IMG/VR virus record: IMGVR_UViG_2690316346_000013
DNA: 9,588 nucleotides
Reading direction: 5' to 3' (one strand)
Source: a virus
Taxonomy: Duplodnaviria > Heunggongvirae > Uroviricota > Caudoviricetes
The notes under the pieces were generated by a model. The model saw nothing but the letters and a program-made list of their open reading frames with translations, made no database searches and had not been told where the DNA came from. Numbering within the stretch: the first letter of the stretch is position 1; every line of letters begins with the position of its first letter. A program made the position numbers and the translations under genes. Positions 1,216-9,588 of the stretch are shown piece after piece.

Positions 1216-1569
1216 CTACCCCAGATGAGTAATCCGAAGTTCATCCATACCACAGGTCCTGGCTATTCTGTTGTACTCCTGAACAAGAGCAAATAATTCT
1301 GAATTAGCAACCATGAACTCATCGCAAACCCTCTGTATAGCATCACTATTCAGAATAATAACGTCTCTTCCCGAAAGACGATCAGGAGTACAGAACAAAA
1401 CTGTCAAACGGCTGAAGGCCTTTGCTCGTGCTGCATTGACTATATCAATACGCTGCCTAAGGATGAAACACCCCGACGCCTCATCAATATTCACTCTACC
1501 CACACCATATGAATGATAAATATTTAATGCTGAAAAAACCATTAGACCGTATAACAAACACTCAATCAA
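1216..1569 (-). CDS. Hypothetical 117-aa protein, TTG start (internal ATG at codon 10 possible)
   Basis: ORF-track ORF whose translation looks protein-like (…[33 protein letters not shown]…). It is rich in rare Arg/Ile codons (AGA, AGG, AUA). Duplicated at 7154..7507. Start codon is uncertain. Confidence 0.4.
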
Positions 1570-1772
1570 TACTTAACAGAACTTTTATTAGTGCCAACTA
1601 TAAAGTGCTAGAATATTTTATCAATAATGGATTGGTTGATGTAAACAAAAAATTTCAAAAAGCAAATAGTGGGGACACTATGCTTGACAATGCAATGAAA
1701 AGCAAAGATTCAAAAATGATTGATTTTTTATTAAAAAATGGAGCAATATTAGGCAAACGATTTGAGATATGA
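1509..1772 (+). CDS. Ankyrin-repeat ORF fragment (87 aa), probably truncated or chimeric
   Basis: The translation contains ankyrin-like repeats: ...[22 protein letters not shown]... and [28 protein letters not shown] (G-x-T-x-L-x-x-A...LL-x-x-GA pattern). Only the first 81 nt lie inside the duplicated block; the repeats are encoded in unique DNA at 1590..1772. The start overlaps the 117-aa ORF on the opposite strand. Confidence 0.4.
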
Positions 1773-2109: not shown

Positions 2110-2412
2110 ATGAGCAGAAAAACCCAACGTTACTCTACGGAGTTTAAAGCCGAAGCCGTCAAAACGGTTCCTGAAAATCAGCTTTCGATCAGTGAAGGCG
2201 CTTCCCGATTATCTCTTCCTGAAGGCACTTTAGGACAATGGGTTACCGCCGCAAGAAAAGGGCTCAATACACCAGGCTCCCGCACAGTGGCTGAGCTGGA
2301 ATCTGAAGTTATGCAACTGCGTAAGGCTTTAAATGAAGCACGACTTGAGCGAGATATATTAAAAAAAGCAACAGCGTATTTTGCACAGGAGTCGCTGAAA
2401 AATACGCGTTAA
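2110..2412 (+). CDS. IS600 transposase OrfA (HTH DNA-binding part), 100 aa
   Basis: RBS GAAGGAG before the ATG. N-terminal HTH followed by a leucine-zipper-like region, typical of IS3-family OrfA. Ends just after the A7G frameshift motif. Confidence 0.85.
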   Translation: MSRKTQRYSTEFKAEAVKTVPENQLSISEGASRLSLPEGTLGQWVTAARKGLNTPGSRTVAELESEVMQLRKALNEARLERDILKKATAYFAQESLKNTR

Positions 2413-2447
2413 TCGAACAATGGCGACAACAATTTCCCATTGAAGCG

Positions 2448-3266
2448 ATGTGTCAGGTATTTGGTGTATCCAGGAGCGGTTATTACAACTGGGTACAGCA
2501 TGAACCCTCAGACAGAAAACAAAGTGATGAGCGGCTAAAACTGGAGATTAAGGTGGCACATATCCGCACTCGCGAAACATATGGAACCCGGCGGCTCCAG
2601 ACGGAGCTGGCAGAGAATGGCATCATCGTTGGTCGTGACCGACTGGCACGTCTTCGTAAGGAGCTAAGGCTACGCTGTAAGCAGAAACGCAAGTTCAGAG
2701 CGACTACGAACTCGAACCACAATCTGCCAGTTGCGCCAAATCTGCTGAACCAGACGTTCGCTCCTACAGCACCAAATCAGGTCTGGGTGGCGGACCTGAC
2801 GTATGTTGCCACACAGGAGGGATGGTTGTACCTCGCTGGCATCAAAGATGTTTATACGTGCGAAATTGTCGGCTACGCCATGGGAGAGCGCATGACAAAA
2901 GAGCTGACAGGTAAAGCCCTGTTTATGGCGCTCAGGAGCCAGCGCCCACCTGCCGGGCTAATCCACCACTCTGATCGAGGTTCACAGTACTGCGCATACG
3001 ATTACCGGGTCATACAGGAGCAGTCTGGTCTGAAAACATCAATGTCGCGTAAAGGTAACTGTTACGACAACGCTCCGATGGAAAGCTTCTGGGGAACGCT
3101 GAAAAATGAGAGCCTGAGCCACTATCGTTTTAATAACCGGGATGAAGCCATCTCAGTAATACGGGAATACATTGAGATTTTCTACAATCGTCAGCGTCGT
3201 CACTCTCGTCTGGGGAATATCTCCCCGGCAGCCTTCAGGGAAAAATATCATCAGATGGCTGCTTAA
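2448..3266 (+). CDS. IS600 transposase OrfB (DDE catalytic domain), 272 aa as annotated; normally expressed as an OrfAB fusion by -1 frameshifting
   Basis: The orfB frame is open upstream to the A7G site at 2361..2368. The protein looks like an rve-type integrase core (…WVADLTYV… HHSDRGSQY… CYDNAPMESFWGTLK…). Confidence 0.85.
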   Translation: MCQVFGVSRSGYYNWVQHEPSDRKQSDERLKLEIKVAHIRTRETYGTRRLQTELAENGIIVGRDRLARLRKELRLRCKQKRKFRATTNSNHNLPVAPNLLNQTFAPTAPNQVWVADLTYVATQEGWLYLAGIKDVYTCEIVGYAMGERMTKELTGKALFMALRSQRPPAGLIHHSDRGSQYCAYDYRVIQEQSGLKTSMSRKGNCYDNAPMESFWGTLKNESLSHYRFNNRDEAISVIREYIEIFYNRQRRHSRLGNISPAAFREKYHQMAA

Positions 3267-3496
3267 AAAAAGAACAAATGGTAGTGTCCGCTATTGCCAG
3301 TACACCTCAGGATAGCGGTCATGTGATGCCGGTTTCCCGGTAACTCAGCACCGGTATCTGAGTCAACGTTTTCTCTACTGGGTCATTTCCGATACGCCCT
3401 GCCTGCTGACAGGCTTTCATCACATCTGAAAATATAGCACCCTGACTGATACTGTAGTACCTAAGGTTCCAGAAACTGTGATGTATCCGGCACAGA

Positions 3497-3753: not shown

Positions 3754-3830
3754 TGGCGCGTTGTACTGGATTCGAACCAGTGACCGATTGCTTAGAAGGC
3801 AATTGCTCTGTCCGGCTGAGCTAACAACGC
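3754..3830 (-). tRNA. tRNA-Arg (anticodon UCU), phage-type
   Basis: Manual cloverleaf, 77 nt: acceptor GCGTTGT/ACAACGC, D-arm GCTC...GAGC, anticodon arm ATTGC-CTTCTAA-GCAAT, T-arm ACTGG-TTCGAAT-CCAGT, then G-CCA. Confidence 0.8.
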
Positions 3831-3843
3831 ATGATGCAGATAA

Positions 3844-3920
3844 TGGACCGCCATCGGGGACTTGAACCCCGCGCAGCCAGCTTCGAAGGCTGGCGCTCTT
3901 TCCTGATGAGCTAATGGCGG
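3844..3920 (-). tRNA. tRNA-Arg (anticodon UCG), phage-type
   Basis: Manual cloverleaf, 77 nt: acceptor CCGCCAT/ATGGCGG (unusual C1-G72), D-arm GCTC...GAGC, anticodon arm CCAGC-CTTCGAA-GCTGG, T-arm CGGGG-TTCAAGT-CCCCG, then T-CCA. Confidence 0.7.
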
Positions 3921-3927
3921 TATGTGA

Positions 3928-4003
3928 TGGTGGCCCTTGCTGGATTTGAACCAGCGACCTGGCGATTATGAGTCGCTCGCTCTCACCACTGAGCTAAAGG
4001 GCC
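3928..4003 (-). tRNA. tRNA-Ile2-like (anticodon CAU, ileX/ileZ type, probably lysidine-modified to read AUA); tRNA-Met not excluded
   Basis: 76 nt. Strongly resembles E. coli ileX as I recall it (GGCCC.TTAGCTCAGTGGT.AGAGC..GCGACTCATAATCGC..GGTCGCTGGTTCAA.TCCAGCA.GGGCCACCA). Anticodon loop is CTCATAA. Confidence 0.8.
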
Positions 4004-4043: not shown

Positions 4044-4844
4044 TCATCCGTTCTGGCTGACTAAATCCTGTACTTCCCGAACCGTCTGCTCAAAACGTTC
4101 AGTCTCCAGCTCAACGCCAATTGCACGACGCCCGAGCGCCAGTGCCGCTTTCACTGTCGAACCCAACCCCATGAAAAAATCTGCAATCAGGTCACCCGGA
4201 CGACTGCTAGCGCTGATTATCTGCTGCAGCATTTCTGCCGGTTTTTCGCACGGATGTTTCCCGGGATAGAACTGCACCGGTTTATGCGTCCACACATCGG
4301 TATACGGCACCTGCACCGTCACGCCAAAATACCGCCGCAGATGTTTATATTCACTCAGCAGCTCCGCATACTGCCGGTTCAGTGAGGTATACGTATCCAC
4401 CAGCTGGTGGTGGAGCTTTTCCAGTTCACCACGCCGATGCTTCTCTTCTGCCACCCGGGCAAACAGCGCCTGTAATTTCAGATAATCGCTTTCATTCGGC
4501 AACTGCCACTGACCGGCACTGAACCAGTGCGACACCATGTTTTTCTTTCCTGTGGCATCTGCAATCTGTTTTGCCGTTATCCCCAGGGCAGCTCGCGCAT
4601 CACGAAAGTAAGAAATCAGCGGGGCCATCACATGCTGTTTCAGTGCACTGCCCTTCGCCGCATACCCGGCATCTTTCGGACGATACGGCCCCTGATAATG
4701 TTCCGCGAACAGAATGCGCTCTGTGGCGGGGAAATACGCCCGCAGGCTTTCCTTGTTGCATCCGTTCCAGCGTCCGGACGGCTTCGCCCAGATAATATGG
4801 TTCAGCACACTGAAGCGTTCACGCATCATGATTTCGATATCAGA
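4044..4844 (-). pseudogene. 5'-truncated copy of the DNA methyltransferase (N-terminal ~87 codons including the DPPY motif replaced by IS600)
   Basis: Matches codons ~88..352 of the intact gene at 7908..8966. Homology stops at 4844, one base before IS600-derived sequence. No start codon or catalytic motif IV remains. Confidence 0.75.
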
Positions 4845-4845
4845 A

Positions 4846-5983
4846 TGAAAATCAACTTTCGATCAGTGAAGGCGCTTCCCGATTATCTCTTCCTGAAGGC
4901 ACTTTAGGACAATGGGTTACCGCCGCCAGAAAAGGGCTCGGTACTCCTGGTTCCCGCACGGTGGCTGAACTGGAATCTGAAATTCTGCAACTGCGTAAGG
5001 CGTTAAATGAAGCTCGCCTTGAGCGAGATATATTAAAAAAAGCAACAGCGTATTTTGCACAGGAGTCGCTGAAAAATACGCGTTAATCGAACAATGGCGA
5101 CAACAATTTCCCATTGAAGCGATGTGTCAGGTATTTGGTGTATCCAGGAGCGGTTATTACAACTGGGTACAGCATGAACCCTCAGACAGAAAACAAAGTG
5201 ATGAGCGGCTAAAACTGGAGATTAAGGTGGCACATATCCGCACTCGCGAAACATATGGAACCCGGCGGCTCCAGACGGAGCTGGCAGAGAATGGCATCAT
5301 CGTTGGTCGTGACCGACTGGCACGTCTTCGTAAGGAGCTAAGGCTACGCTGTAAGCAGAAACGCAAGTTCAGAGCGACTACGAACTCGAACCACAATCTG
5401 CCAGTTGCGCCAAATCTGCTGAACCAGACGTTCGCTCCTACAGCACCAAATCAGGTCTGGGTGGCGGACCTGACGTATGTTGCCACACAGGAGGGATGGT
5501 TGTACCTCGCTGGCATCAAAGATGTTTATACGTGCGAAATTGTCGGCTACGCCATGGGAGAGCGCATGACAAAAGAGCTGACAGGTAAAGCCCTGTTTAT
5601 GGCGCTCAGGAGCCAGCGCCCACCTGCCGGGCTAATCCACCACTCTGATCGAGGTTCACAGTACTGCGCATACGATTACCGGGTCATACAGGAGCAGTCT
5701 GGTCTGAAAACATCAATGTCGCGTAAAGGTAACTGTTACGACAACGCTCCGATGGAAAGCTTCTGGGGAACGCTGAAAAATGAGAGCCTGAGCCACTATC
5801 GTTTTAATAACCGGGATGAAGCCATCTCAGTAATACGGGAATACATTGAGATTTTCTACAATCGTCAGCGTCGTCACTCTCGTCTGGGGAATATCTCCCC
5901 GGCAGCCTTCAGGGAAAAATATCATCAGATGGCTGCTTAAAAAAAGAACAAATGGTAGTGTCCGCTATTGCCAGTACACCTCA
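4846..5983 (+). mobile_element. 5'-truncated IS600 (equivalent to positions ~127..1264; left inverted repeat and orfA start missing)
   Basis: From ~5030 to the end it is identical to the full copy. The first ~180 bp (4846..~5030) differ at about 14 positions from the full copy and encode the OrfA variant ...GLGTPGSRTVAELESEILQ..., i.e. a mosaic of two IS600 isoforms. Confidence 0.8.
5122..5940 (+). CDS. IS600 transposase OrfB (second copy), 272 aa; the upstream orfA is only a start-less fragment (4846..5086)
   Basis: Protein identical to the orfB product at 2448..3266. Confidence 0.8.
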   Translation: MCQVFGVSRSGYYNWVQHEPSDRKQSDERLKLEIKVAHIRTRETYGTRRLQTELAENGIIVGRDRLARLRKELRLRCKQKRKFRATTNSNHNLPVAPNLLNQTFAPTAPNQVWVADLTYVATQEGWLYLAGIKDVYTCEIVGYAMGERMTKELTGKALFMALRSQRPPAGLIHHSDRGSQYCAYDYRVIQEQSGLKTSMSRKGNCYDNAPMESFWGTLKNESLSHYRFNNRDEAISVIREYIEIFYNRQRRHSRLGNISPAAFREKYHQMAA

Positions 5984-6110
5984 GGGTATAAGGGGTTATG
6001 GCCACCGGACTACCAAACGGCTGCCAGCCCTCTTTCAGTTTATGTGTCAGCTTTTCCGCAAGATCTGACGGCGGCGCCGCCCTGACAACATCATAGTGTT
6101 TAAATGCCAT
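5937..6110 (-). CDS. Small hypothetical protein (MAFKHYDVVRAAPPSDLAEKLTHKLKEGWQPFGSPVAITPYTL...), 3' end fused to IS600 end sequence
   Basis: ATG at 6110..6108 with an upstream GGTGGAAAG tract; an alternative upstream ATG is at 6125. Native sequence ends at the IS600 boundary (5983/5984); the last ~14 codons are IS-derived. Confidence 0.3.
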   Translation of the reverse strand: MAFKHYDVVRAAPPSDLAEKLTHKLKEGWQPFGSPVAITPYTLRCTGNSGHYHLFFF

Positions 6111-6370
6111 GGTTCTTTCCACCATCTGAAAAATAATTCTTTAAAATACCTGACATGTAATACAGAAAAAACACAAAACCATACCTTAAATAAAAACCTG
6201 ATTATCAAGCAGATATGCATGGATAAACTACAAGACGAGATATAAACCACCCTGCATTTAAATAAACAATAAACAACATCAGAAAAATAATTCTGCTCTA
6301 TGGTTTACATTCAAAAATATCATTTATACTTTTCAGAACATCACCAGCAAGGCATAAACAAGGAAACTAA

Positions 6371-6706
6371 ATGAAGTGGATTGTGATTGATACAGTTATC
6401 CAGCCATCATGCGGAATATCTTTTTCAGTCATATGGAGTAAAATAAAATTAATAATCTGGTATCAATCGGATGCTTTCTTACCTCCTGAAAGTATATTTA
6501 CACTGACTCACACAGGCATCATGCTCAATAACAAAGTGCTACCTGTAACCATTTACAACGTAGTACCATTCAATAAAACATTCTGGAATTCAATCAAAAA
6601 TAGCCAGGAATGCCCTACAAATACAGATAACGTATTGAATGAATGCTTTAATAACCGTTGCACTCTGCAAATATGTCCTTATGGACTAAAACAACAAAGT
6701 CCATAA
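6371..6706 (+). CDS. Hypothetical 111-aa protein (duplicate of 433..768)
   Basis: Sequence identical to 433..768, with the same RBS and the same downstream hairpin. Confidence 0.5.
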
Positions 6707-6738
6707 GGAGTTTACTCACATCTGACAAAATCAATATA

Positions 6739-6963
6739 AACAGCCCCTCCGGAGAGGGGCTGGAGAGTGGCGCTATGTGCCATTGCATGGTGCCGGGTGC
6801 CTCCCGGTGAATTCAGTACCAGCACCTGAATCCGCGATTATCCCATATACCTACTCGCTGATTGCCCCTCCGCACAGGGGGATTCACCATGCCAGTTTCT
6901 TTTAACAAACTCCCCGCAAACCAGACAACAGTCAACCGCCTGAATTGTGAAGTATTTAAAAAT
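6739..6963. repeat. Hairpin-dense ~225-bp element, copy A' (identical to 801..1025)
   Basis: Lies inside the 1,589-bp duplication. Confidence 0.6.
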
Positions 6964-6986
6964 TTCTCCCGCTAACTGATACCCGG

Positions 6987-7073
6987 CTAACAGTCTGGCG
7001 TTTTCTTTTTCAGCAACGGGAAAGCAACAACCACCACACCCGCCACCAGCACACCGTCAGCCAGCACTGACAT
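6987..7073 (-). CDS. Candidate small hydrophobic peptide (duplicate of 1049..1135)
   Basis: Identical sequence. Confidence 0.25.
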   Translation of the reverse strand: MSVLADGVLVAGVVVVAFPLLKKKTPDC

Positions 7074-7153
7074 TATCCGGCTGCTGCAATGCCATTCACA
7101 AAAACAGTAAGCAATCACTTTTTACCGTAACAGGTGATAATCCAGATATGTAT

Positions 7154-7507
7154 CTACCCCAGATGAGTAATCCGAAGTTCATCCATACCACAGGTCCTGG
7201 CTATTCTGTTGTACTCCTGAACAAGAGCAAATAATTCTGAATTAGCAACCATGAACTCATCGCAAACCCTCTGTATAGCATCACTATTCAGAATAATAAC
7301 GTCTCTTCCCGAAAGACGATCAGGAGTACAGAACAAAACTGTCAAACGGCTGAAGGCCTTTGCTCGTGCTGCATTGACTATATCAATACGCTGCCTAAGG
7401 ATGAAACACCCCGACGCCTCATCAATATTCACTCTACCCACACCATATGAATGATAAATATTTAATGCTGAAAAAACCATTAGACCGTATAACAAACACT
7501 CAATCAA
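7154..7507 (-). CDS. Hypothetical 117-aa protein (duplicate of 1216..1569)
   Basis: Identical sequence. Here it lies about 110 bp downstream of the tRNA cluster on the same strand, with no terminator between them. Confidence 0.4.
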   Translation of the reverse strand: MIECLLYGLMVFSALNIYHSYGVGRVNIDEASGCFILRQRIDIVNAARAKAFSRLTVLFCTPDRLSGRDVIILNSDAIQRVCDEFMVANSELFALVQEYNRIARTCGMDELRITHLG

Positions 7508-7617
7508 TACTTAACAGAACTTTTATTTTTGACAAACATAAAATATTTTCAACAATATCCTGAGCCAGGTATATTTCAGTATAAGGCTCTGCCGGAAGGA
7601 ATCTGGAAGAATGAATA

Positions 7618-7694
7618 TGGCGCGCTGTACTGGATTCGAACCAGTGACCGATTGCTTAGAAGGCAATTGCTCTGTCCGGCTGAGCTAACAACGC
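7618..7694 (-). tRNA. tRNA-Arg (anticodon UCU), second copy with U4.G69 in the acceptor stem
   Basis: Same as 3754..3830 except for c at 7625 (t at 3761), which turns the U4-A69 pair into a U.G wobble. Confidence 0.75.
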
Positions 7695-7707
7695 ATGATG
7701 CAGATAA

Positions 7708-7784
7708 TGGACCGCCATCGGGGACTTGAACCCCGCGCAGCCAGCTTCGAAGGCTGGCGCTCTTTCCTGATGAGCTAATGGCGG
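7708..7784 (-). tRNA. tRNA-Arg (anticodon UCG), second copy
   Basis: Identical to 3844..3920. Confidence 0.7.
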
Positions 7785-7791
7785 TATGTGA

Positions 7792-7867
7792 TGGTGGCCC
7801 TTGCTGGATTTGAACCAGCGACCTGGCGATTATGAGTCGCTCGCTCTCACCACTGAGCTAAAGGGCC
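7792..7867 (-). tRNA. tRNA-Ile2-like (anticodon CAU), second copy
   Basis: Identical to 3928..4003. Confidence 0.8.
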
Positions 7868-7907
7868 GGGAGCCGCATAATAACGACGCGTAATTAATTC
7901 TTCAATA

Positions 7908-8966
7908 TCATCCGTTCTGGCTGACTAAATCCTGTACTTCCCGAACCGTCTGCTCAAAACGTTCAGTCTCCAGCTCAACGCCAATTGCACGACGCCCGAG
8001 CGCCAGTGCCGCTTTCACTGTCGAACCCAACCCCATGAAAAAATCTGCAATCAGGTCACCCGGACGACTGCTAGCGCTGATTATCTGCTGCAGCATTTCT
8101 GCCGGTTTTTCGCACGGATGTTTCCCGGGATAGAACTGCACCGGTTTATGCGTCCACACATCGGTATACGGCACCTGCACCGTCACGCCAAAATACCGCC
8201 GCAGATGTTTATATTCACTCAGCAGCTCCGCATACTGCCGGTTCAGTGAGGTATACGTATCCACCAGCTGGTGGTGGAGCTTTTCCAGTTCACCACGCCG
8301 ATGCTTCTCTTCTGCCACCCGGGCAAACAGCGCCTGTAATTTCAGATAATCGCTTTCATTCGGCAACTGCCACTGACCGGCACTGAACCAGTGCGACACC
8401 ATGTTTTTCTTTCCTGTGGCATCTGCAATCTGTTTTGCCGTTATCCCCAGGGCAGCTCGCGCATCACGAAAGTAAGAAATCAGCGGGGCCATCACATGCT
8501 GTTTCAGTGCACTGCCCTTCGCCGCATACCCGGCATCTTTCGGACGATACGGCCCCTGATAATGTTCCGCGAACAGAATGCGCTCTGTGGCGGGGAAATA
8601 CGCCCGCAGGCTTTCCTTGTTGCATCCGTTCCAGCGTCCGGACGGCTTCGCCCAGATAATATGGTTCAGCACACTGAAGCGTTCACGCATCATGATTTCG
8701 ATATCAGATGCCAGGCGATGACCACAGAACAGGTAAAGACTTCCGGCAGGTTTCAGCACCCGCCAGAACTGCGCCAGACACTGGTCCAGCCACTTCAGGT
8801 AATCATCGTCGCCCTTCCACTGGTTATCCCAGCCCTCAGGCTTCACTTTAAAGTACGGCGGGTCCGTGACTATCAGGTCAACAGAATTTTCGGGTAACGA
8901 CCGGATAAATTCCAGGCAGTCGGCGTTGATTAACTCACAACTGGATATTTTTACAGTATTAAGCAT
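7908..8966 (-). CDS. Beta-class amino-DNA methyltransferase (N6-adenine or N4-cytosine), 352 aa, phage-type orphan
   Basis: Motif IV DPPY (…DLIVTDPPYF…) near the N-terminus and motif I FxGxG (…DFFMGLGSTV…) near the C-terminus, which is the beta-class order. No adjacent restriction endonuclease candidate. Sits immediately upstream of the tRNA triplet on the same strand. Confidence 0.85.
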   Translation of the reverse strand: MLNTVKISSCELINADCLEFIRSLPENSVDLIVTDPPYFKVKPEGWDNQWKGDDDYLKWLDQCLAQFWRVLKPAGSLYLFCGHRLASDIEIMMRERFSVLNHIIWAKPSGRWNGCNKESLRAYFPATERILFAEHYQGPYRPKDAGYAAKGSALKQHVMAPLISYFRDARAALGITAKQIADATGKKNMVSHWFSAGQWQLPNESDYLKLQALFARVAEEKHRRGELEKLHHQLVDTYTSLNRQYAELLSEYKHLRRYFGVTVQVPYTDVWTHKPVQFYPGKHPCEKPAEMLQQIISASSRPGDLIADFFMGLGSTVKAALALGRRAIGVELETERFEQTVREVQDLVSQNG

Positions 8967-8998
8967 GGATCATTAAGCCTGTCTCTGATAGGCTCATT

Positions 8999-9017
8999 CT
9001 GCTTTTGCGCAAAGCAG
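8999..9017. promoter_or_regulatory. Near-perfect palindrome (ctgcttt-tgcgca-aagcag) 33 bp upstream of the methyltransferase start: candidate operator or RNA hairpin
   Basis: Dyad symmetry read directly from the sequence; function is inferred. Confidence 0.3.
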
Positions 9018-9058
9018 TGGGCCTGAGGTTTGCTTGTGAACCCAACGCATGAGCAGAT

Positions 9059-9089
9059 GGCTGGTGGGTGCCCCTAACACCCACCAGCC
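9059..9089 (-). other. Strong hairpin (perfect 12-bp stem ggctggtgggtg / cacccaccagcc, 7-nt loop) with no U-tract
   Basis: Perfect inverted repeat between the upstream terminator and the methyltransferase. Not followed by a T-run on either strand, so it is not a canonical intrinsic terminator. Confidence 0.4.
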
Positions 9090-9100
9090 GCCCATTTACC

Positions 9101-9130
9101 ACAAATAAAAAAGCCTTCACTGCGGAAGGC
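9101..9130 (-). terminator. Rho-independent terminator after the 65-aa gene (minus strand)
   Basis: On the minus strand: stem gccuuc / gaaggc with a 6-nt loop, followed by UUUUUUAUUU. The TGA stop of the 65-aa ORF lies inside the stem. Confidence 0.6.
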
Positions 9131-9314
9131 GTCTGTAACAACCGAACTGATAGTCTGCCAGACCCGCCATAACCAGCTGGGTCAGTATTAACTGGCAGCG
9201 TTCGCGTGAAAGGTAAGTATTCTGCGCTATCTCCCCGACTGTCGCCGGTTCGGTAACGCTTAATTCATTAAACACCACTCTGGCGGTTTCTGTCATATCC
9301 TGCTGTTTTAGCAT
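9117..9314 (-). CDS. Small HTH-like DNA-binding protein, 65 aa
   Basis: Good RBS (GGAAAAGGAAAAG before the ATG). The segment …ATVGEIAQNTYLSRERCQLILTQLVMAGLA… has the spacing of a helix-turn-helix or winged-helix motif. Bracketed by two intrinsic terminators. Confidence 0.5.
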   Translation of the reverse strand: MLKQQDMTETARVVFNELSVTEPATVGEIAQNTYLSRERCQLILTQLVMAGLADYQFGCYRRLPQ

Positions 9315-9434
9315 GTCTTTTCCTTTTCCGGTTAACGTGACACACCAATAACTCTTGTCGAAAAAGCCAGCAAGCTGAAAGACAGGTATTCACCGCCACC
9401 AGCGCGTTTACTGTACTGACGCGATTTCAGTCAT

Positions 9435-9458
9435 AAAAAACCCGCTCGGCGGCGGGTT
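9435..9458 (-). terminator. Rho-independent terminator (minus strand) downstream of a gene whose 3' end lies at the window edge
   Basis: On the minus strand: stem cccgc / gcggg, extendable by two A-U pairs, followed by a run of 6 U. An open minus-strand reading frame enters from the window end (about 9557..9588). Confidence 0.55.
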
Positions 9459-9588
9459 GTAGAAACTCTTCTAACGTCAGGCATAAAACGCCCATCGTTA
9501 TGACGAATTTACCACAGATTCCGGAAAAATCAACCTTGTTACCTAGTTACCTTTTTTAACTGCCGCTCAGCCCATGCTTCTTCAATAT

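Follow-up and report, generated by a model that had tools for sequence, protein, structure and literature searches.

The DNA stretch analyzed in this work (hereafter the window) is the 9,588-nt IMG/VR virus record IMGVR_UViG_2690316346_000013, and the subject is the control region located at window positions 8967-9588. This region is read on the minus strand and contains, in the following order, the end of an antiterminator gene (Q), the late promoter pR′, the terminator tR′, a small gene of 65 amino acids (aa), a second terminator (terminator 2), a structured leader and the start of a DNA methyltransferase gene. Judged by its sequence, it is the late-operon control of a lambdoid prophage related to the Shiga toxin (Stx) phages, in a copy which is without stx genes and full of IS600. 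The known part of the arrangement is the Q/pR′/tR′ switch and the new part is one RNA element, that is, the leader. The small open reading frame (ORF) is a real winged-helix gene, the role of which, like the mechanisms by which the leader and the small protein act, we so far only infer.

An earlier note on the window had listed two intrinsic terminators, the 65-aa ORF, a perfect hairpin and a near-palindrome as candidates for late-operon control. All of these elements were found again on the minus strand and at the same coordinates; the palindrome is present as well, with a gap to the methyltransferase ATG of 32 nt and not 33 bp. A terminator scan of the window gave three candidates, both listed terminators among them, against 0.9 +/- 1.1 expected, a count which alone is weak evidence. 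The elements are judged real because they are conserved in related loci, and not because of the number of terminators.

The methyltransferase gene and its leader RNA

The methyltransferase gene (7908..8966, minus strand) encodes a 352-aa beta-class N6-adenine DNA methyltransferase of the M.EcoGI/GII type. It matches PF01555 (E = 7.9e-42) and shows the motif order of the beta class, with an N-terminal DPPY at residues 35-38 and a C-terminal FxGxG (FFMGLGS) near residue 309. With a 349-aa enzyme from an O104:H4 prophage it has 336 out of 348 residues identical (97%); that enzyme is accompanied by an identical set of Q, small gene and tRNAs, and the control region from the Q end to the ATG is 98% identical between the two. 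M.EcoGI and M.EcoGII are two near-identical 349-aa enzymes of O104:H4 prophages which methylate adenine in any context, are harmful if constitutively expressed and are not expressed in the lysogen, and a very similar enzyme is carried by phage 1720a-02 (PMC5778455), which is also among the sequence matches of the window region. The 97% identity suggests that the methyltransferase of the window is equally sequence-non-specific. An enzyme that is harmful and silent in the lysogen provides a functional reason for tight control.

The leader is 131 nt long (8964..9094, minus strand), ends at the methyltransferase ATG and scores 131.9 bits with the covariance model R1. Alignment of the spacers showed long conserved blocks and five helices. 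P1 (9094-9090 with 9022-9018, UGGGC with GCCCA) closes a three-way junction. P2 (9089-9059) is a perfect 12-bp hairpin with a 7-nt loop and no U-tract, and its folding energy of -26.5 kcal/mol (z = -4.9) was reached by none of 200 shuffles. P3 (9057-9052 with 9034-9029) surrounds a loop conserved as GGUCAC, with the loop box GGUUCAC near 9039-9036, P4 (9017-8999) is the 19-nt near-palindrome CTGCTTTGCGCAAAAGCAG with a folding z of -2.2, and P5 (8996-8990 with 8980-8974) ends 7-8 nt before the AUG. The conserved unpaired blocks are GGUCAC, ACC-AAG and GAGCCUAUCA. Hairpin and palindrome, which had been taken as separate control sites, proved to be P2 and P4 of one leader that travels with the methyltransferase. 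As helices they are conserved in related prophages, even in those without the small gene.

The covariance model, which was built on 31 sequences, gave one strong match per locus in about 100 loci, with E values as low as 1e-31; each match is in the sense strand, and its end always coincides with the start of the methyltransferase gene. Covariation was counted on model-fitted alignments. In 66 distinct enterobacterial leaders, 11 pairs changed on both sides, compared with 5.6 +/- 1.4 in shuffled alignments (0/500) and 4-8 when the partners were slid, and 91% of the cells pair. For instance, one P3 pair is C-G in 28, U-A in 19 and A-U in 13 cases. The leader was also found in 10 out of 11 distant loci (21-52 bits), just upstream of the methyltransferase unit. 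These belong to N15, phiKO2, PY54 and YDC107_1, to the Vibrio phages VHML, MAR, Valp1 and ST2-1pr, and to the Aeromonas phages phiARM81ld and PhAER-1. Within nine distinct distant sequences, 26 of the 34 pairs change on both sides (16.3 +/- 2.2 shuffled, 7-15 slid), pairing holds in 85% of the cells (60% shuffled, 31-38% slid) and all five P4 pairs covary. Covariation and the fixed position at the gene start point to a structured cis-regulatory mRNA element.

Respective searches with Rfam 15 had all matches in the window below threshold, with P26 (24 bits, gathering score 36) and isrK (16 bits, gathering score 50) as the best overlaps, and returned no match at E <= 0.1 in the loci of N15, VHML, PY54 and phiARM81ld. 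No description of the leader was found in the literature searched.

Hairpin and palindrome could alternatively be DNA operators of a dimeric winged-helix protein which, in the manner of a restriction-modification C protein, represses or times the transcription of the methyltransferase gene. The fold of the 65-aa protein is of the dsDNA-binding type, and P4 is nearly a perfect palindrome, centered on GCGC or TGCA, which in some genomes becomes a perfect 16-mer; its center is not the same in the main clade as in the clade whose small proteins diverge most. In N15, however, P4 covaries in all five pairs to an unrelated sequence (GCUUU/AAAGC to GCGAU/AUCGC), P2 is replaced by hairpins of wholly different sequence, and wobble pairs of the sense strand are frequent in P2 and P5. 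The long-range pairing of P1 also covaries, which a duplex operator does not explain. Since, in addition, the elements are kept in loci without the small gene and are located 30-125 bp downstream of any plausible promoter, the operator explanation is considered very unlikely.

The leader is taken, with moderate confidence, as a sense-strand RNA because it is always inside the late transcript and ends at the start codon. Wobble pairs favor the same strand, that is, 38 G.U against 4 A.C in P2 and 68 against 3 in P5. An internal start of the leader from the extended -10 promoter TGTGAAAAT may occur, but it would remove the covarying 5′ arm of P1.

Several further features of the leader were examined and set aside. 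Measured against the window, the leader and the methyltransferase coding sequence are conserved to about the same degree, and the idea that the leader is far more conserved than coding DNA was given up. The outer two pairs first proposed for P4 are paired in 26-52% and were dropped. For a pseudoknot of the P3 loop (GGUCA) with the pre-AUG UGAUC there is no covariation, since the 3′ side is invariant, and loci without UGAUC still have the TCAC box. Similarly, a tertiary pairing of UGUGA, upstream of P1, with UCACA in the P3 loop is not kept in N15, PY54 and the Vibrio phages.

There is no Shine-Dalgarno (SD) sequence before the methyltransferase ATG, where the sequence is CTTAATGATCC, nor in any other member of the leader family. 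An invariant UGAUC, which includes a GATC Dam site (8967-8972, minus strand), abuts the AUG at the SD position and is the same in nearly all relatives. It would be complementary to 5′-GAUCA-3′ of the 16S rRNA, just upstream of the anti-SD core. Coupled translation from an upstream ORF that stops at the TGA preceding the ATG was rejected, as the frame has a stop 8 codons upstream and lacks a start codon.

Terminator 2 (9103..9130, minus strand) precedes the leader. Its stem (9130-9113) has the TGA stop codon of the small gene inside and is followed by TTTTTTATTT at 9112-9103. In 47 out of 57 distinct upstream sequences a hairpin is found 13-19 nt (mode 15) before P1; it has 6-8 bp, is rich in G+C and varies in sequence, and the stop codon of the small gene is usually located in its loop. 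In most distant phages, P1 is preceded at 11-13 nt by a canonical terminator, which in N15 and phiKO2 is annotated as the terminator of the putative late promoter. In the Vibrio phages Valp1 and ST2-1pr no clear terminator was seen before the leader. In loci without the small gene, the leader is placed directly behind tR′ (locus L169) or behind another hairpin. The common design would therefore read as terminator, A-rich linker, leader and methyltransferase, and in the lineage of the window a unit with the small gene appears to have been inserted between tR′ and the second terminator. A Xenorhabdus locus (L117 2195-2300) points the same way; it has the small gene and the methyltransferase and, in place of the leader, a strong 11-bp terminator hairpin that parts the two genes. 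Locus L108 (1980-2302) is decayed, with a truncated small gene, a mutated leader and a deleted methyltransferase.

The position of the leader directly behind a terminator, at a near-fixed distance of 13-19 nt and at the very start of the late transcript, would also suit an element that acts on transcription or on the fate of the RNA, that is, a put-like antitermination or anti-Rho element carrying the late transcript over its long untranslated stretch, or one for the processing or stability of the methyltransferase-tRNA segment. Terminators are found behind the methyltransferase gene as well in SfV, N15 and phiKO2, tRNA genes that need processing are located downstream in the window, and the accessibility test described below supports translational control weakly. 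On the other hand, polymerase modified by Q is already resistant to terminators, so a second antitermination device seems redundant; in every locus the leader has its 3′ end fixed at the start codon of either the methyltransferase or com, which agrees with a role linked to initiation, and there is no resemblance to put or to other antitermination RNAs of Rfam. A role of this kind is held to be improbable.

The winged-helix gene and its box

The 65-aa gene (9117..9314, minus strand) starts with the ATG at 9314, ends with the TGA at 9119-9117 and has AAGGA 9-13 nt upstream of its ATG. Its product is filed in PHROGs as phrog_331, "unknown function." Pairwise differences at the three codon positions of 34 sequences are 0.31/0.25/0.54. 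The 334 database relatives come from Escherichia, Shigella, Salmonella, Klebsiella, Citrobacter and Buttiauxella, and relatives at ~50% identity are found in phages of Hafnia, Morganella and Providencia. The AlphaFold2 (AF2) model has a pLDDT of 90 and the topology H1-b-H2-H3-wing, a confident prediction of a winged-helix fold. Foldseek neighbors are the winged helices of IclR, MarR and the N-terminal part of O-methyltransferases, with TM-scores up to 0.82 for N-terminal domains of the IclR type and E values of only ~1e-3. Relationship with gp51 of N15 has a probability of 90% in hhalign.

All Pfam matches of the protein, including MarR_2, DprA_WH and HTH_24, were below threshold, and PDB sequence searches gave generic matches only. 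The PGAP label "TrmB family" was not adopted, as PF01978 scores 18 bits against a cut-off of 25.6 and membership is not demonstrated. Literature searches on the small protein, on SfV orf47 / phiP27 L23 and on the N15 gene 52 leader yielded nothing specific.

The earlier note had left room for a fortuitous ORF inside a 6S-like leader transcript, and in its widest form this explanation would see the ORF, the hairpin and the palindrome as chance features of such a non-coding RNA. In the single sequence the number of terminators and P4 (z = -2.2) are indeed barely above chance. The predicted short transcript from pR′, however, ends at 9433, ~120 nt before the ORF, and the ORF is conserved as a protein, with its third-position variation, its 334 relatives and its confident winged-helix model. 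The leader is present and covarying in about 100 loci with E values down to 1e-31. The chance explanation is refuted by these data and can practically be set aside.

Upstream of the gene a promoter-like box (9337..9373, minus strand) is located, which consists of TTGCTG (9373-9368), 12 variable nt, AGAGTTA (9355-9349) and TGTGTCAC (9344-9337). Its consensus, TTGCTG, exactly 12 variable nt and AGAGTTAyNTGTrTG, is nearly invariant and lies ~35 nt upstream of the gene. The spacing is rigid in 33 distinct variants, and the box is absent only in the decayed locus L108. The window has a single copy of it, and so does the complete SfV genome. The box looks like the promoter or operator of the small gene itself. 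With its own box and terminator 2, the small gene is therefore a separate unit outside the short pR′ RNA, and the box at 9373-9337 is a candidate target of the 65-aa protein.

Some other interpretations of the box were discarded. The spacers fold inconsistently, and no inverted repeat or operator inside them was accepted. A regulon of such boxes does not agree with the single box of the SfV genome. CII-type, sigma-54, LexA, DnaA and IHF readings, compared by eye only, did not fit.

N15-like phages have a related box before genes 50-51, TGGATG-N12-AGAGTTAC..TGTGTC (L241 694-735, L244 85-, L247 90-). The presence of a related box in the gp51 operon argues that the box, and not the leader, is the partner of the protein.

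Another possibility is that the 65-aa protein behaves like Com, that is, that translation of the methyltransferase requires the protein to bind to the leader RNA and open it. Of 37 loci, drawn from phages and from bacterial genomes taken one per species, 36 have a ~350-aa N6_N4 methyltransferase behind the small gene, with a spacer of about 140-154 nt in most. A gene for a small nucleic-acid-binding protein just upstream of a harmful modification gene resembles com in Mu/FluMu-type prophages, the methyltransferase is without SD, and one of the Foldseek neighbors is the RNA-binding winged helix of SelB. In addition, a Com-type zinc-ribbon gene is placed before the same methyltransferase family in Valp1 and phiARM81ld; in the latter, an Aeromonas phage, com gene p55 (PF10122, 27.9 bits with a threshold of 22.9) is located between the leader and the methyltransferase. 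The linkage is nevertheless not strict. Of 78 viral loci, 6 have the leader and the methyltransferase but not the small gene, the Xenorhabdus locus L117 has the small gene and the methyltransferase without the leader, and the N15-like gp51 is encoded in a separate unit upstream of the late promoter. In the window itself, a terminator parts the small gene from the leader. The protein has no PF10122 match and does not belong to the zinc ribbons; in fold it comes closest to the dsDNA-binding domains of IclR and MarR. A Com-like function has, in our view, a low probability.

The late switch and the setting of the cassette

The 3′ end of Q (9539..9588, minus strand) comprises 15 codons and the stop TAA at 9541-9539, and belongs to the 273-aa quuQ/mEp460 type of the lambda family. 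Over its last 156 nt, the region shares 98.7% identity with the annotated Q end and the sequence behind it in phage mEp460_ev081; as a whole, it matches a Stx2a phage whose upstream gene is annotated as quuQ, and a full-length relative (L001, 273-aa Q) matches PF03589 with E = 4.7e-50. As read from these near-identical relatives, the gene upstream is a Q-like antiterminator of the lambda family (PF03589), which the earlier note had asked about.

The late promoter pR′ (9506..9533, minus strand) begins five bases past the Q stop codon with the -35 hexamer TTGATT (9533-9528), which is followed by a 16-nt spacer with TG at -15/-14 and by the -10 hexamer TAAATT (9511-9506). A pause element is located at 9491..9499 (minus strand), with a -10-like AACGAT and then GGG, the signature of a qut / sigma-70-dependent pause, and the predicted start is A9499. 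In lambda, the -10-like element induces a sigma-70-dependent pause where Q loads onto the polymerase. The window has TTGATT, 16 nt, TAAATT, CGTCAT and AACGATGGG, and lambda pR′ has TTGACT, 17 nt, TAAATT, TGACTC and AACGATGGG, with the -10 hexamer and the following element in the same sequence and register. The combination TAAATT-N6-AACGATGGG (15 specified bases) has a single match in the window and none in 200 shuffles. The signature of promoter and pause is also found behind other lambda-type Q genes (L005, L104, L110 and L169). pR′ was assigned by its homology to lambda and by the sequence in mEp460, which is identical.

The terminator tR′ (9433..9458, minus strand) has a stem at 9458-9439 with 7 pairs, 5 of them G-C, and a run of 6 T at 9438-9433. 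With a start at A9499, tR′ would release a short pR′ RNA of ~67 nt, a putative analogue of the lambda 6S RNA and of StxS. In lysogens, transcription from pR′ is constitutive and ends at tR′, and the resulting short RNA can serve as a regulator, for example StxS (PMC7547250). The methyltransferase and the tRNAs lie behind terminators that would depend on Q, and the logic of Q, pR′ and tR′ put forward in the earlier note is borne out by the Q family, by the promoter and pause in lambda register, and by tR′. This part is ordinary lambdoid biology.

The phage mEp460_ev081 has an identical Q-pR′-tR′ segment with tRNA genes directly behind. Homology to Stx2 phages and to phiP27, which have other Q types, starts exactly at the tR′ stem, and by this comparison the stem is a mosaic joint, as expected. 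Between tR′ and the box there is a lineage-specific segment of ~60 nt (9374..9432, minus strand) with CAGTACAGTAAACGCGCTGGTGGCGGTGAATAC, which is common to Stx2 phages, phiP27, SfV and mEp460 and absent in many genera. In phiP27 (L002 2702-3931), a GIY-YIG nuclease gene is located between the 82-type Q and the terminator preceding the cassette.

Two observations concern the short RNA. The isrK match, which falls on the pR′-tR′ RNA (9435-9506, minus strand), is sub-threshold at 16 bits (gathering score 50); isrK is an Hfq-binding RNA of the Salmonella Gifsy-1 prophage, and probably only the shape of the terminator is shared. The initial transcript of the N15 late promoter (L241 1300-1345, GTTGGGATTTTTACGCCTGAC) resembles the pR′ transcript of the window (9499-9460, GATGGGCGTTTTATGCCTGAC), which suggests a common type of late promoter-proximal region.

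Downstream of the methyltransferase, three tRNA genes (7618..7867, minus strand; a CAU Met/Ile-type, Arg-UCG and Arg-UCU) belong to the same late transcript, in the same order as in Stx phages and the O104:H4 prophage. The triplet is typical of Stx phages and has a second copy at 3754-4003 (minus strand). Between the tRNAs and an iraM-like ORF no stx remnant was detectable (tblastn E > 1). The cassette is present in 2,281 out of 5,426 complete E. coli genomes (42%), and close relatives among the Stx2a, Stx2d and Stx2e phages have the same cassette between Q and stx.

The window consists of a prophage remnant that is duplicated and broken by IS600, and the control region is kept in one copy only. 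Segment 1-1589 is repeated at 5939-7527 (100%) and segment 3742-4844 at 7605-8708 (99.5%). The IS600 copies at 2172-3311 and 4846-5985 are 98.8% alike and 98% identical to IS600 of Shigella sonnei. A second methyltransferase copy (4044-4844, minus strand) has its 5′ end cut by IS600 at the junction 4844/4846 and has lost Q, pR′, the small gene and the leader, with the tRNA triplet alone intact. The other 65-aa ORF of the window (4917..5114), considered as part of a second control region, is unrelated and antisense inside IS600; the control region is therefore present only once in the window. An 87-aa ORF (1509-1772, plus strand) corresponds to the C-terminal part of the Shigella OspC effector family (PF06128, E = 9.8e-29), has ankyrin-like repeats and looks like a gene fragment. 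No complete E. coli genome had >=80% of the window, which points to a source that is of Shigella type or rearranged.

Probable stacked control and its relation to known systems

Taken together, we hold it probable that the harmful, sequence-non-specific methyltransferase is placed under stacked controls, namely the Q switch, the unit of the small gene and the leader. In the lysogen, tR′ would stop the transcripts from pR′ and terminator 2 those from the box, and the methyltransferase would be silent. After induction, RNA polymerase loaded with Q would pass both terminators, so that the methyltransferase would be made late and would hypermethylate the phage DNA against host restriction. The leader would act on the mRNA, most likely by setting or gating the initiation of translation of the methyltransferase gene, which is without SD. 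The winged-helix protein would be an accessory regulator of the cassette, possibly of its own box, and not an obligatory activator.

Control of translation initiation is the most likely role of the leader, although as an assignment it is tentative. It is favored because there is no SD, P5 ends just before the AUG, and the start region is modestly less accessible, at 0.34 compared with 0.44 with a shuffled leader, and lower in 66 out of 71 related sequences, an effect that is small, partly trivial and drawn from sequences that are related to each other. A bolder interpretation, which we rather doubt, is that the leader represents a new and widespread class of phage cis-regulatory RNAs for M.EcoGII-type methyltransferases, controlling the SD-independent translation of a host-toxic enzyme in response to a trans factor or signal. 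The candidate effectors in that doubtful case would be a protein (the winged-helix one, one of the Com type or the methyltransferase itself) or a metabolite. If true, it would explain the silence of M.EcoGI/M.EcoGII in lysogens.

Several points, the small size of the accessibility effect included, weigh against the stacked-control reading. For the switch, only 16 codons of Q are inside the window, and the start site, the termination efficiency and the read-through dependent on Q are all predictions. A simple promoter scan of the window did not list pR′. The box is without a canonical -10 hexamer, and its function as a promoter is for this reason only putative. The long T-run of terminator 2 (6-8 T) is limited to the clade of the window, and elsewhere the U-tract is weak. 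With regard to the leader, the model-fitted alignments used for counting covariation favor the structure; however, this pattern is already visible in the raw MAFFT alignment for P1, for P3 and for P2 in its outer part, and the slid controls were made on the same model-fitted alignments as the counts. Folding energy does not tell the strands apart (z = -4.07 sense, -4.57 antisense), and in P3 A.C exceeds G.U (37 against 5), mostly at one recurrent C.A position.

M.EcoGII is widely used as a reagent for chromatin footprinting and DamID-type experiments. Its silence in the native host and its harm were noted without explanation (PMC5778455), and two terminators followed by a conserved, structured leader without SD form an architecture that could account for the silence of M.EcoGI/GII. 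As the cassette is placed between Q and stx in many Stx2 phages, every late stx transcript there passes through it. The leader adds a covarying RNA motif of Enterobacterales, Vibrio and Aeromonas phages which is absent from Rfam 15, and the phrog_331 winged-helix protein gains a genomic context and a candidate binding site.

The late control of lambda is alike in the Pfam family of Q, in the promoter directly after Q, in the terminator giving a short RNA and in the late genes behind it. The short RNA of lambda, however, has 194 nt and that of the window ~67 nt, and the stretch from -35 to -10 to which lambda Q binds has no relation in sequence to that of the window; the specificity of Q therefore probably differs from lambda. 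Moreover, the window has the small gene, terminator 2, the leader, the methyltransferase and tRNAs between tR′ and the lysis genes. In Stx phages, as is predicted for the window, pR′ is constitutive but terminated in the lysogen, and the stx, tRNA and late genes depend on Q (PMC7547250). StxS is processed from a 258-nt transcript to 74 nt, compared with the ~67 nt predicted for the RNA of the window.

In FluMu and Pnme1, which are Mu-like prophages, non-specific adenine methyltransferases replace Mom behind com, and translational control of the Com type has been proposed (PMC3299994; for the system see also PMC6483171). The com-mom operon of Mu is alike in having a harmful anti-restriction enzyme made late only, stacked controls, a small gene for a nucleic-acid-binding protein upstream and a structured start. 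Com of Mu, however, is a Cys4 zinc ribbon, whereas the protein of the window is a winged helix with two cysteines only. Furthermore, com overlaps its modification gene, whereas the small gene of the window is split off by a terminator and about 150 nt. The likeness between Com and the 65-aa protein is thus in layout only, and the leader can occur without the small gene.

The C proteins of restriction-modification operons have a helix-turn-helix of the Xre type and bind C-boxes before their own gene. As in the window, a small protein of the DNA-binding type is encoded just upstream of a methyltransferase gene. The window differs in having a winged helix, no restriction enzyme and a palindrome that behaves as an RNA stem.

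Further likeness is found in N15, phiKO2 and PY54, in which the same methyltransferase family (56-60% identity) is encoded by gene 52 and the leader (33-52 bits) is placed between the terminator and the methylase, with the lysis genes further on. These phages also have the winged-helix homologue gp51 and the related box before genes 50-51. In contrast to the window, their winged-helix gene is located upstream of the late promoter, and only one terminator precedes the leader.

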